From positions 29,884,001 to 29,948,000 of the forward strand of contig OX597824.1 in NCBI GenBank assembly GCA_951406725.2: a stretch of DNA of 64,000 nt. Direction: 5' to 3'. The DNA is from Octopus vulgaris. Lineage: Eukaryota. How positions within the stretch are numbered: position 1 is the stretch's first letter; each line of letters opens with the position of its first letter. Below, in pieces: positions 3,939-64,000 of the stretch. The position numbers and the translations under genes were made by a program. The notes below the pieces were generated by a model. The model was not told the origin of the DNA. It ran no database searches and saw nothing but the letters and a program-made list of their open reading frames with translations.

Positions 3939-4241
3939 AATGATAAGATAAATAATTTCTATAAAGGCTTTTAAAAAAACCCCAATTATTTACTGGTAGA
4001 ATTCGGTATGTAAATATAGCCGATTACCGGCAGGAACTTCTGTAAAGTTCAGTATATATATTGTATATAAGAAAAAGGGACAGGCAAAACAGGTTGCTTG
4101 ACCGCATACCGAAAAAATAGAAATAGCAGTCAAGAATGCTTATTTCTATCAAAGTTGGACTTCGGGCATGACCTTTGATAGAAATAAGCATTCTTGACTG
4201 CTATTTCTATTTTTTCGGTATGCGGTCAAGCAACCTGTTCT
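3939..4241. mobile_element. Hairpin-containing insertion in (TA)n, Penelope-like non-autonomous candidate
   Basis: 67-bp inverted arms 4088-4154/4173-4239 with 18-nt loop; both ends abut (TA)n. Confidence 0.65.
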
Positions 4242-4504
4242 TATATATATATATATATATATATATATATATATATATATATATATATATATATATATGT
4301 ATGTATATATACATGTATGTATATATACCGGTGTAAACCCCTTAAATATACTTAATCCATTATATATATATATATATGTATAAATATAGTTAATATATAA
4401 ATAGTTAATCCAAACATGAAAACACAAAGAGAAAACACAACAACGTGAGGACGTGGAACAAATATAGTATTATTGGACGCTCAGGAAGGAAGGAAAGAAG
4501 GAGG

Positions 4505-4539
4505 GTTTAACGTTTCGAGCGGAGCTCTTCGTCAGAAAC
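4505..4539 (-). ncRNA. Minimal type-I hammerhead ribozyme motif in a Penelope-like pLTR fragment (~4410-4610)
   Basis: Minus strand gttt-CTGACGA-a-gagc(tcc)gctc-GAAA-cg-T-T-aaac: intact core, stems I and II pair, palindromic ACGT stem III. Confidence 0.7.
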
Positions 4540-5819
4540 AGGAAAAGGAAAGATCCAAAGAAGGGAAGACAGAGGAAAAAAATCGCCAAAGGTACACACA
4601 CGGTCACATTTTAATGTATCTATGTGTATCCGCGTGGTGTGTGTGTGTGTGTGTGAGTGTGTGTGTGTGTGTGTGTGCTTGTGTTGTGTATGTGTTCGGT
4701 GTGTTAAAGAATGAGATTGAAATTTAACTTTTAATAACTGAATCATACGCTTCGCTTCCTTCGTTTCTTTCGTCGGAGAGTGTGCATGTCTGCTTATGTG
4801 TGTGTACATATGTATGAATGCTTGCGTGTTAGTAAGCATGATGTACGACGTGTGTGTATTTGTGTGTGTTGATATGGATTTCTGCATGTATATGTGTGTG
4901 TATATATGAGATTTTTTTTTTATTTATACGTGATGTATTTGGAGCACCTGCACATGTCTGGTGGTTTGTATATATATATATATATATATATGTGTGTGTG
5001 TGTGTGAGTAAGTGTGTGTGTGTGTGTGTGCGTGTATTTGTGTACGTATACAAACATATTTAGATACAGAAAAATATGTATATATATGTGTGAGCGCGTG
5101 CCTGTTTAAGCATGTGTGTAAGAGTGTGTGTGTGTGTGTATGTATGTGTATATATATATATATATATATATATATATATATATATGCGTGTTTATGTCTG
5201 CATATGTACATGCGTGTGTGTTCGCGCGTGTATGTGTGTGTCTGCTTTTGTTTTTTGTTTTTTGGGGTTTTTTTTTTTGCTTGTGTGCGTGTGTGTGTGT
5301 GTGTGTGTGTTTATGTCGTGTAATGTCCCAAGATCTACCATTATATCGGATGTGATCTTTCGACGGTCTTTGTTCCTGGTGTTTTGTTTTGTCTTTCTTC
5401 TCCTCGTATTCCTCCTCCTCTCTTCCTCCTCCTCTTCCTCCCCCTCCTCTTCCCCTTCCTCGTCTCTTCCCTCTTCGTCTTTCTTCGTCTTCCTGCCAGT
5501 CTCTGTCGATCAGATTAAAATCATTGCAGATACATTAAAATTCATGATCTCTTCTGTTGCTCGTCCAACAACAACGACAACACCAGCGACAATCAGAACA
5601 GCAACATCAATAACAACAACAATAGTAACGTCAACAACGAGTCTAGTGAGAAAGGTACGCTGGGAAATCTTATGCAAATTGCCGCTCCACTTTGCGAAAG
5701 ACAAAGAATGGTGGGAAGATCTGGAGAAATCTCAATATTGTTGGGAATATCTGCTATTTCAAAGAGACAGTGCCAAACCGTAGAGGAGGGACTGACATGT
5801 ATGCGTAGTAGTGATGACG

Positions 5820-6185
5820 AATGGGTGATGGTGGCGGCGACGACGGTGAGTGGTGTTGGTGGTGGTGGCGGCGGCGGCTGCGGTGGTGGTGGTCGTGGTG
5901 GTGGTGGTCGTGGTGGTGGTCGTGGTGGTGGTGGTGGTCGTGGTGGTGGTGGTGGTGGTCATGATGACGACGACGAAGATGATGATGATGATGATGATGA
6001 TGATGATGATGCCAATGACGATGATGTTGAAGATGATGACGATGATGATGATGATGACGATGACGATGACGACGATGACGATGATCATGATGATCACAAC
6101 GAGAAAGGTAATGATGATGACGGCGATGATGACGACGACGACGACTATGATGATGATGATGATGATGACGATGATGATGATGATT
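5820..6185. repeat. Compound (GGT/GGC)n-(GAT/GAC)n trinucleotide repeat
   Basis: Direct reading; similar architecture at 10305-10710. Confidence 0.9.
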
Positions 6186-7508
6186 TTTATAGTGGTTATG
6201 GTTGTGATGGTAATACTACTAGAAAATTCTGAAGACAAATATAAATGTTAAGCAGCCGGCATTATTGAGCGTGTGACTCAAAGTGGGAATTATGCATATT
6301 GCATATAAAACTTGACAGGAATGATGAATATGTATGTTTATTTGTGTATACACGCGGGCGTATGTGCATACATACATACATATATATGTGTATATATATA
6401 TATATATATATATATATATATATATATATATATATATATGTATATATATATATATATATATATATACATGTATGCATATATATGTGTGTGTGTGTGTATC
6501 TATATATGTATATATATATGCATGCGTGTGTGTATCTGTGAGTATGTGTATATATGAATATACAGTGAGACGTTTGTAACAACAGGTGTTTATTTTAACA
6601 ACGACGTATAAAACAAATTACAGGTGTACATTGTTCATTTGTCTTTTTCTTTTTCTATAATAATAATAATAATAATAATAATAATAATAATAATAATAAT
6701 AATAATAATAATAATAACAACAACAACAACAACAATAATAATAATGATAATAATAATAATAATAACAATAATGATAATAATAAACAATGACATCAACCAA
6801 AAAACCGCAATTAGCACCTGTGAAGAATTAATGCTTATTTTGTGAGAAGGGAAGTGTGATTGTGTACTTAGAAATGGACAGAGGTTAAAAGCAGACAAGG
6901 ACCTCTGATCTTGTTTGTCCACGGTTATGTATCAAAGGTTGACGATAGACAAATAAACAACAGCTTACACACACACATACATACACACACACGCACATTT
7001 GTTTATGTGTCGAGTTAGAATAGAAACAGTTTAACATTAAACCAAAGAGTTACTTCAATACTTTCTGTAGAGCACATTTTTATTATACTTTTAGAAGAGA
7101 AGGTGAGTGACAGGGACTTCGCAGTTTCTGCCCTGTACTCTTCGTCGGACTGTTCGAAGCCGTTCTCACCTGTCTAATTGTAAAAGTATATTATACATAC
7201 ATATATGTTTCTATATGTACATATATATATATATATATATATATATATATATATATATATATATATATATATATATACATACACACACGTATCGGTGTTT
7301 TATATATGGGTGGATATATATATATATATACATATATATATATATATATATATATATATATATATATATATATACATAGCAAATAACCCCCCCCCCCCAA
7401 AAAAAAAAAAAAAAACAAAAAACAAAGAACAAATACAAATAAAACTACAACGCGAGAACGTGGTACATGTAAAGTATTAGCAGGCGCTCAGGGAAGGAAA
7501 AAAAGATG

Positions 7509-61585: not shown

Positions 61586-62077
61586 GAGTTCTGTATGGCA
61601 AAATGTTTGCTTCGACCCCAATACTTATTTTCAAGTCTGGTACTTATTCTATCGGTCTCTTTTGTCGGGTTGTCAAACGATAGTTGAGAACAAACACAAA
61701 GTAAACATATACATATTATTCGGAGGAGGAGTGGAACTGAGAAAAGTGACTGTGTGCCAGGCGAGAGGTTAAAGTATGATAGAGGAACAGAGACAGTTGT
61801 CTTACTATAGAAGAGATACTTAGCGACAGAAGAACCCACAAAAGTAAACAAGAGACAGAGACAGGCAGAAACAAGGAAAATGCCACTTGTATTTGAACAC
61901 TATACACGTATTCTTTTAAAAAAACTTTTATTTTATTGTTTCCAAATTTAATTGTTTTCCATACTTACAATTGAAGAAGCCTCAGTGACTGAAACTGGTA
62001 CTGAAATGTTTTTTACAAAATTATTTTAGCATTTTCTATCTTGACTTTTTTTTCCATATATATATATATATATATTA

Positions 62078-62487
62078 CTCTCTTTTACTCTTTTACTTGT
62101 TTCAGTCATTTGACTGCGGCCATGCTGGAGCACCGCCTTTAATCGAGCAACTCGACCCCGGCACTTATTCTTTGTAAGCCCAGTACTTATTCTATTGGTC
62201 TCTTTTGCCGAACCGCTAAGTGACGGGGACATAAACACACCAGCATCGGTTGTCAAGCAATGCTAGGGGGACAAACACGGACACACAAACACACACACAT
62301 ACATATATATATATACATATATACGACGGGCTTCTTTCAGTTTCCGTCTACCAAATCCACTCACAAGGCTTTGGTCGGCTCGAGGCTATAGTAGAAGACA
62401 CTTGCCCAAGGTGCCATGCAGTGGGACTGAACCCGGAACCATGTGGTTGGTAAACAAGCTACTTACCACACAGCCACTCCTGCGCCT
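62078..62487 (-). mobile_element. SINE family B inserted in (TA)n
   Basis: Full-length reverse-complement copy. Confidence 0.9.
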
Positions 62488-62706
62488 ATATATATATATA
62501 TATATATATATATATATATATATATATATATATATATATATATATATATATATATATATATATATATATATATATATATATATATATATATATATATATA
62601 TGGAAATGGTAAGACAACAAAAGAATGAAAGAGACCTCGATATTATGTAAATAGAGGAATTTATCTGTAAATGTAATATGTGACAATTATTCGGTAACAA
62701 TGGCCG

Positions 62707-62767
62707 GATAACTGAAGAGATAGTGGCGTGGATTTCCACCTCGGCATCCGAAACTCGGAGTTTTATC
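62707..62767 (+). ncRNA. Hammerhead ribozyme motif inside a hairpin insertion (62601-62810)
   Basis: gataa-CTGAAGA-[g..gtgga(tt)tccac..c]-GAAA-ctcggag-T-T-ttatc; enclosed by 35-bp arms 62662-62696/62773-62807. Confidence 0.65.
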
Positions 62768-64000
62768 ATGGCTACCGAATAATTGACACATATTACATTT
62801 ACAGATATATATACATATATTTCTACTTTGCAGACACCTCGGGGAAAGTATCTTCTACTATATATACATATGGTCTCCTATAGGAGAAATGAAACTGTTT
62901 GGCACACGTTGGACTCGGAGTACACACGGAAGGATACGATTAAGCAGCGTAACGCTCTCTGGCGCTTCTGCTAATTCACTGCCTTACCAAGTAGTAGTGG
63001 TAGTAGTAGCAGCAGTAGTAGCAGCAGCAGTAGTAGTGGTAGTAGTAGTAGTAGTAGTAGTAGTAGTAGTAGTAGTAGGAGGAGGAGGAGGAGGAGGAGG
63101 AGGAGGAGGAAGACGAGAAGGAAGAGGAAGAGGAGGAGTGGTGGTGGTGGTGGTGGTGGTGGTGGTGGTGGTAGTGGTAGTTATACTGTCGTCATTGCTG
63201 CAGTTGTTTAGTTCCAGACCAGTCCTTATCGAACAGATGAAAGATATTCCAGTTGTGACTATTCCAACATGTATGCTGCTGCTGCTGCTGGCGGTGGCGG
63301 CGGCGGTGGTGGTGGTGGTGGTGGTAGTAGTAGTAGTAGTAGTAGTAGTAGTAGTAGTACAATTATTCGTTTTACTATTGGTATGACATGGAGATATGTT
63401 TGCGTTGGTGGTGGTGGTGACGGTCGTCGTTGTAGTAGTAGTAGCAGTAGTGGTGGTGGTAGTAGTGGTTGTGATTGTGATGGTGGTAGTTGTTTAAGTG
63501 ATGGCGGGTGTATCATTGTTGAGGTCGTCGTCGTCGTCGTTGTAGTGAGACTAGGTGAGTGGTAGTCTGTTTAGGTGAGAGGTTTCGCTTGACTGAGAAT
63601 CTAGTATGCCATGCCGGACGTGTCCCGCCTCTGTTTTAATCACACACACACACCAACACATGCTCACTCACAGACCCATATACACAACGCACACGCGCTT
63701 ACATACATGCTTACACAAAAATAGGCTTTCACACACGCATATACGAACACACGCACTTCGTTCCGCTTGACTGATCCGTTCCGTGTTAATTGAGCCATAT
63801 CTCTGAAGTGAGGACTTGATAGGCAGGTCAAATGGCAGGAATTATTCGCCCTATCTGAATTACACGGCTATAGCGGAACCTATAATGAAAATAAGAATAA
63901 GGGGAAGAATAAGGATGTCGTGGTTCGCCAGAGGGGCAGCAGCTGGAAAACAGAATATAAAACGAAAACACACAATGCCAGCGAGTTTCATTAAGAAGAA

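Follow-up and report, generated by a model that had tools for sequence, protein, structure and literature searches.

We analyzed a 64-kb window of the Octopus vulgaris genome (contig OX597824.1 of assembly GCA_951406725.2, positions 29,884,001 to 29,948,000 of the forward strand; coordinates below are those of the window) that contains six short hairpin inserts at (TA)n microsatellites. The inserts are non-random and represent a miniature form of a known insertion architecture, not a new system. We consider them probably to be heavily 5'-truncated 3' ends of Penelope-like elements (PLEs) from several families, placed head to head, with one of the two copies carrying a tail. Family-level statements refer to this window.

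Six hairpin inserts at TA repeats

All six inserts named in the original prediction are present where it had placed them. Arm lengths and mismatches were taken on the unmasked sequence.

3940..4241, no strand: insert c1, a unique part of 148 nt and 67-bp arms (4088-4154/4173-4239, 0 mismatches, loop of 18 nt)
3879-3939 and 4242-4298: (TA)n flanks of c1
8455..8672, no strand: insert c2, composite, with 20-bp arms (8491-8510/8520-8539, 0 mismatches, loop of 9 nt)
8455-8493, minus strand: left piece of c2, the 3' end of a small hammerhead-bearing family
8540-8672, plus strand: right piece of c2, related to c1 and ending at the TA repeat
29255..29356, no strand: insert c3, a unique part of 59 nt and 21-bp arms (29314-29334/29341-29361, 0 mismatches, loop of 6 nt)
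41107..41304, no strand: insert c4, a unique part of 97 nt and 39-bp arms (41204-41242/41268-41306, 2 mismatches, loop of 25 nt)
49529..49759, no strand: insert c5, a unique part of 110 nt and 55-bp arms (49639-49693/49708-49762, 1 mismatch, loop of 14 nt)
62602..62807, no strand: insert c6, a unique part of 60 nt and 35-bp arms (62662-62696/62773-62807, 1 mismatch, loop of 76 nt)

The geometry proposed for all six held for c1 and c3-c6, in which a TA repeat is followed by a unique part of 59-148 nt, an arm, the loop, the second arm and a TA repeat. The arms of these five contain 4 mismatches in 217 bp, one of them a G-T pair on the plus strand. The hairpin of c2 is internal, with 36 nt separating it from the left edge and 133 nt from the right-hand TA run, and its layout is unlike that of the other five. 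A one-sided extension of 59-148 nt, the putative tail, is thus seen in 5/6 inserts; that of c1 would be in sense on the minus strand. TA repeats lie on both sides of every insert, in degenerate form at the left of c2 and c4 and at the right of c6, where the repeat is also short; the left flank of c6 is a long (TA)n, and c3 and c5 have (TA)n at both sides. The further claim that one arm runs straight into (TA)n in five inserts was borne out as to the TA at the arm end of c1 and c3-c6, with the reservation that the c1 arm ends 2 nt short of the TA run and that the TA of c6 is the short, degenerate one. Five nucleotides of the c3 arm are themselves TA, leaving 16 of 21 bp outside the run. The short copy of c1 differs from the long copy at its end and may lack 16 nt ahead of its TA junction. 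The loop of c5 holds a 10-nt local duplication, and c5 gave a sub-threshold match to a microRNA (miRNA) model in Rfam.

The window is repeat-dense and microsatellite-rich, with 80 (TA)n runs of at least 5 units and four dispersed families that we take to be short interspersed elements (SINEs). We scanned it with an orientation-neutral hairpin search (score of at least 16, loop of at most 150 nt) and recovered 12 hairpins, compared to 0 in each of 30 local shuffles. A TA repeat lay at the outer end of 5 of the 12 (c1, c4, c5, c6 and a hairpin at 12546), against 0.3-0.4% of unmasked positions. The c3 hairpin fell below the threshold since its AT parts were masked, and it was recovered by a separate hairpin search; the output of a standard inverted-repeat finder was dominated by microsatellites. 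Of the rows that do not touch TA, one is a SINE pair, another a mariner-like pair and a third, at 18715, an unexplained pair; two more are parts of one palindromic complex at 60452-60862.

As predicted, the arms differ from copy to copy, and no two of the six inserts have arms in common. Since one arm is internal and none is common to any two inserts, the arms are not terminal inverted repeats, in agreement with the original prediction. The three motifs that had been taken to link the inserts are exact and occur in the inserts only; they were, however, chosen post hoc, and the sharing of an 11-mer by 2 of 15 insert pairs was matched by 3 of 100 shuffles. Among 368 local alignment comparisons the best link was that of c1 with the right part of c2 (z 5.1), c4 and c5 were weakly linked (z 3.5), and the links of c3 and of c6 to the remaining inserts were not convincing (z of 3.3 or less). 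When c1, c2, c4 and c5 were aligned jointly, column identity was 44% and no usable consensus resulted. Judged from the pairwise alignments and the 11-mers, the inserts appear to belong to several families, each present once or a few times, and not to one. Neither a single system nor non-autonomous derivatives need be invoked, as plain 5'-truncated copies of several autonomous families would suffice.

The inserts contain no open reading frame (ORF). Of 653 frames of at least 50 amino acids in the window, the 240 least-masked were run against Pfam; no reverse transcriptase (RT) or GIY-YIG domain was matched among the 240, and fragments of mariner helix-turn-helix (HTH) domains were the only matches above the cut-off. 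For these 240 frames, the expectation that no autonomous partner would be found in the window was supported.

Hammerhead motifs, the probable PLE link and other features of the window

Hammerhead ribozymes of this kind mark the pseudo-long terminal repeats (pLTRs) of PLEs and vary strongly within one genome (PMC4209133). A strict hammerhead descriptor gave 5 matches in the window, located in the c6 loop, in the two arms of a hairpin at 41526, at 4535 and at 7539; of 200 shuffles, 199 gave 0 matches and the remaining one gave 1. Partial hammerheads were present in c2 and in pieces at 12546, 42282 and 11186, and none was present in c1, c3, c4 or c5. A relaxed scan for half-hammerheads gave 11 matches compared to 0-5 in 100 shuffles, a count that includes chance hits and serves as support only. 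The pieces concerned are as follows.

62707..62767, plus strand: type I hammerhead in the c6 loop (core 62712-62718, GAAAC 62750-62754, predicted cut after 62762)
41526..41834, no strand: hairpin with 135-bp arms, 5 mismatches and no tail
12546..12644, no strand: hairpin with 18-bp perfect arms, the right one running into degenerate TA, and a loop of 63 nt that holds degenerate hammerhead parts
42282..42340, minus strand: unpaired piece with the 3' half of a hammerhead and a palindromic stem III
11186..11403, minus strand: solo insert of 218 nt flanked by (TA)n runs, which lacks a hairpin and holds a degenerate hammerhead
4378..4620, minus strand: pLTR-like PLE piece beside a TA repeat, with a minimal hammerhead (core at 4535)
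7400-7610, minus strand: second copy of the pLTR-like piece beside a TA repeat, with a hammerhead at 7539 (z 33.8 between the copies)

The hairpin at 41526-41834 is the clearest PLE double end in the window. Each arm carries a type I hammerhead (41645 on the minus strand, 41715 on the plus strand), which is direct evidence for a head-to-head arrangement; the flanks are a CA repeat on the left and a TG repeat on the right, with irregularities that are not mirrored. This hairpin and the one at 12546 are additional to those of the original prediction. In c1 and c3-c6 a head-to-head arrangement would follow from the predicted strand polarity. The c6 hammerhead has a 5-bp stem I and a stem III of the style seen in the Hydra clade of PLEs, and a canonical hammerhead with the 3-4 bp stem III and short loop typical of that clade was found, among the six inserts, in c6 alone. 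A 12-mer of c6 spanning GAAA and stem III occurs once in the PLE supplement of 584,131 characters, within the hammerhead of Hydra-2_Amil (PMC8557442). The distance from the cut site to the 3' end, counted by hand in six Hydra consensi, is 36, 46 or 47 nt in some and 88, 97 or 116 nt in others, and in c6 it is 45 nt to the short end and 105 nt to the long end.

The left part of c2, the 12546 hairpin and the 42282 piece form one small family (z 8-16) that occurs in composite, paired and unpaired form, and four 3' ends of this family stop within about 3 nt whether paired or solo. The unique parts of the inserts are purine-rich on the plus strand (0.55-0.72), hence pyrimidine-rich on the minus strand; hammerhead-downstream segments elsewhere in the window have a purine fraction of 0.29-0.35 on the sense strand. 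As the hammerhead-downstream pieces are pyrimidine-rich upstream as well, composition would fix the strand of the unique parts and not their position. A further piece at 56650-56720 (minus strand) is hammerhead-like and degenerate, has short inverted ends and apparently lies within a SINE copy.

The inserts were compared with published Hydra consensi by eye and by look-up of short words in the supplement of PMC8557442, where sequences are line-wrapped so that matches spanning lines are missed. Look-ups of insert motifs gave 0 of 6 terms in one round and 2 of 6 in another, and no insert matches a consensus beyond 10-12 nt; one of the two matching terms, a 10-mer of c4, was picked after the end of Hydra-2_Amil was known and is not independent. 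Two insert 8-mers with 7 and 5 supplement matches were dropped as too common to inform, and the unique part of c6 resembled by eye the sequence that precedes the hammerhead in Hydra-1_Obim, a likeness that did not hold up. The supplement of PMC13282606 (5,371 characters, without the repeat library) gave 0 matches. Taken on sequence, the putative PLE origin would have a direct link in c6, backed also by the hammerheads of neighboring hairpins, and an indirect one in c1, c2, c4 and c5, and c3 lacks an anchor. Insert c6 is most like the Hydra clade; c1, c3, c4 and c5 could be Naiad ends, for which no match was found in the look-ups.

In Rfam, matches of microsatellites to miRNA models dominated the whole window, and a 5S rRNA-like sequence was the only one above the gathering score among the matches listed (150 of 316). 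Features apart from the inserts are listed here.

60400-60880: complex palindrome away from TA repeats, with arms of 80, 35 and 27 bp that match perfectly and a duplicated unit of about 115 nt, downstream of a 201-amino-acid frame (59419-60024) with no Pfam match
16148-16266, plus strand: full-length 5S rRNA match (105.6 bits), a dispersed 5S copy or the head of a 5S-derived SINE
13228-14592, 25698-26287 and 58773-59045: fragments of decayed mariner transposases (HTH_48), of which one has long inverted repeats
35859-36137, minus strand: C-terminal fragment of a non-LTR retrotransposon protein, with an RT domain in one of six homologues
18715-18832: 28-bp inverted repeat between SINE fragments, with 3 mismatches and a loop of 62 nt, unexplained

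Origin of the hairpins

We propose the following route. An RT-GIY-YIG protein would cut (TA)n, a palindromic target, probably in both strands, and reverse transcription would begin at one of two internal RNA sites, distal or proximal, that lie past the hammerhead. A distal start would yield the copy with the tail (the unique part) and a proximal start the copy that ends at the arm. Synthesis would abort after 20-230 nt, and microhomology or a brief fold-back synthesis would then link the two short complementary DNAs (cDNAs) at their 5' ends, in the order TA, tail, arm, loop, arm, TA. Published work offers parts of this scheme: the purified anole PLE protein cuts and extends both target strands, is predicted to act as a dimer and initiates at two internal sites, one at either boundary of the tail (PMC11167929), and self-priming was proposed for Adineta Penelope, in which pLTRs lie head to head with palindromes at the junction (PMC3846280). 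The mechanism behind inverted PLE ends is stated as open in PMC8557442 and PMC11167929.

The two strands of (TA)n read alike from 5' to 3', so that a nick in either leaves an identical primer, and the CA/TG flanks of the 41526 hairpin may follow the same logic. The original prediction of a simple snap-back meets a difficulty here, as a single folded-back cDNA must have a loop with the polarity of the tailed copy. The c6 hammerhead has the polarity of the tail-less, short copy; the loop motif of c4, if homologous to the c1 arm, weakly shows the same, and c2 has two unrelated outward ends. These observations lead us to lean slightly toward two separately primed cDNAs over the snap-back of one cDNA, although they would also be explained if a longer palindrome had later suffered a deletion on one side or, in the case of c2, if one insertion had followed another. 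Inserts c3 and c5 have tight loops with self-complementary junction bases, and these loops, like the 10-nt duplication of c5, fit fold-back and end joining equally well; with two cDNAs, too, the junction may involve short fold-backs.

The TA-abutting arm is on the right in 6/6 cases (c1, c3, c4, c5, c6 and 12546; p 0.03). The longer 3' end points left in 11/12 cases (five long copies, c2 and six solo hammerhead-like pieces; p 0.006), or in 10/12 (p 0.04) if c6 is on the plus strand, but the solo pieces were chosen by relaxed criteria and two or three are doubtful, making the orientation bias a lead only. A bias of this strength is not seen in the SINEs, whose four families lie both ways round (8:6, 12:5, 13:9 and 4:1). 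It is possible, and we suggest it tentatively, that the inserts make up a very common class of abortive PLE product, so far missing from catalogues, in which cDNAs are primed separately by the two nicked strands of a palindromic target. The templates would in some cases be RNAs of different families (c2), and a host process such as fork or transcription direction would determine the long/short orientation. If that were true, about one insert per 10 kb would provide a genome-wide dataset that decides between twin priming and self-priming. In minimal double-ended insertions a single read spans the two priming sites together with the 5'-5' junction, and loop polarity, end positions and mixed-family junctions can thus be counted by the thousand. 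Such inserts are likely mislabelled as MITEs (miniature inverted-repeat transposable elements), miRNA hairpins or unknown repeats, as the sub-threshold miRNA match of c5 would suggest.

A number of observations weigh against truncated, head-to-head PLE ends as the source of the inserts. The full hammerhead core is present in 1/6 inserts, Rfam run on c6 alone did not detect a hammerhead, the c6 stem II is irregular and the minimum-energy fold lacks the hammerhead junction. Five insert motifs and their reverse complements had no match among the Naiad, Chlamys and Hydra consensi, and three longer terms also gave 0; c3 is without a PLE anchor, and c1, c4 and c5 are tied in by weak motifs. The putative tails of 59-148 nt exceed the published 30-40 nt, and all arms face one way, a bias not expected at a palindromic target if the element alone were responsible. 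The remaining points favor another explanation, namely that small PLE-derived families inherit the hairpins as a fixed feature, in the form of natural long extensions of stems I/II or of an ancient fold-back amplified non-autonomously. The c6 arms prolong hammerhead stem I in the predicted fold, and Hydra-1_Obim has by eye a natural, shorter and imperfect extension of the same stem, so that the c6 arms could be intrinsic. Likewise, c2 and 12546 have junction boxes in common and are asymmetric in the same way, and the fold-back centre of 12546 seems to coincide with that of 42282; the common junctions of this family suggest inheritance and do not bear out the earlier claim that each hairpin arises anew. 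Palindromes are known at pLTR 5' ends (PMC3846280), as are non-autonomous PLE derivatives (PMC8557442), among them retrozymes (preprint bioRxiv 10.64898/2026.07.22.740005). However, the near-purely Watson-Crick arms resemble DNA copying more than an evolved RNA stem, no arms are common to any of the six inserts, and the family of c2-left and 12546 is also found unpaired (42282). We therefore regard inherited structure as a rather unlikely explanation for the inserts as a whole.

Host template switching at (TA)n after insertion, in which a stalled fork folds back, copies the adjacent sequence and re-anneals at internal TA microhomology, would account for the right-sided arms and for short ends that stop at internal TA-like bases of the long copy. 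We find it quite improbable: many SINEs lie beside the 80 TA runs, yet no SINE end has such a hairpin, the polarity of the c6 loop misfits unless the element is on the plus strand, and the flank irregularities at 41526 are not mirrored. The inserts are short, non-coding and AT-targeted and contain inverted repeats, as would be expected of microsatellite-targeting MITEs or of non-autonomous DNA elements of the Helitron/Helentron type, and MITE and Helitron families have been recorded as recently active in Octopus vulgaris (PMC13282606). This reading is largely refuted by the geometry and appears very unlikely to us. Inverted repeats at both termini were not observed, as one arm lies 59-148 nt inside the insert in c1 and c3-c6 and both are internal in c2; the arms adjoin a short loop and do not bound the element. 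Uniform copies with shared termini were not observed either, the longest word shared within this one window being 11 nt, and the hammerhead motifs point to an RNA intermediate. Fold-back chimeric reads or an assembly error at TA tracts could have produced the perfect arms of c1 (67/67), c2 and c3 and the uniform direction of all arms, but we give this almost no weight given that the arms of c4, c5, c6 and 41526 carry 1-5 substitutions, that the two c1 copies differ at one end and that hammerhead content is biological.

Comparison with known systems

In L1 twin priming, two primed cDNAs joined by microhomology produce an inversion; the second primer anneals to a site well within the RNA, and the resulting pieces share no sequence. 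The inserts differ in that both copies cover one 3' segment, which results in a hairpin.

Within PLEs, the head-to-head structure, the optional tail, the (TA)n preference and the idea of self-priming are all already published (PMC8557442, PMC3846280, PMC11167929). As standard features, PLE copies are heavily truncated at the 5' end, where an inverted and likewise 5'-truncated copy adjoins, and are biased toward (TA)n; the tail of 30-40 bp is at one end only (PMC8557442). We found no published account of PLE hairpins of 100-300 nt in head-to-head form, judging by titles and the openings of abstracts in mostly open literature without Repbase. The inserts would be mostly ordinary repeat debris, which could be of use for testing PLE integration. 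Active Penelope families are recorded in O. vulgaris (PMC13282606).

As read here, the inserts would resemble Penelope/Poseidon elements (PMC3846280, PMC11167929) in their head-to-head copies, junction palindromes, tail on one copy and AT-rich targets, and self-priming has been proposed for those elements. The inserts differ by their longer putative tails, by having two minimal copies and by two loops whose polarity is that of the copy without a tail. Naiad PLEs (PMC8557442) have a similar (TA)n preference and, on the present reading of the inserts, similar inverted structures and a tail, and remnants are reported in cephalopods, but Naiads lack the canonical hammerhead that c6 and 41526 contain. 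Non-LTR retrozymes (bioRxiv 10.64898/2026.07.22.740005) are likewise small and non-coding, with a type I hammerhead, and are PLE-derived, as the inserts probably are; they form head-to-tail tandem arrays, in contrast to the single or head-to-head pieces found here, and no tandem array of hammerhead units was present at the insert loci.

The Hydra clade (Hydra-1_Obim and Hydra-2_Amil; PMC8557442) differs from the inserts in size (2-3 kb against 100-300 nt). The inserts have no ORF, both of their copies would amount to the last 20-230 nt, the hammerhead is seen in c6 alone and consensus matches stay within 10-12 nt. PLEs with an endonuclease (EN+), among which Hydra elements carry it C-terminally, have a single ORF for a telomerase-like RT and the GIY-YIG endonuclease, and Hydra proteins are marked by RWK and DKT motifs, a CxCX5C linker and an EN without CCHH; the inserts are non-coding fragments. 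Almost all Hydra PLEs insert in (TA)n, which is preferred or annotated in 25/27 of the families listed (26 by row count, with one blank), and one family is from Octopus bimaculoides (PMC8557442). The clade shares with the inserts the (TA)n targets, and with c6 a canonical type I hammerhead motif, which in the clade lies near the 3' end with a 4-bp stem III and a 1-nt loop, and two classes of cut-to-end distance; an inverted 5'-truncated copy is recorded for Penelope-13_HM (PMC8557442).

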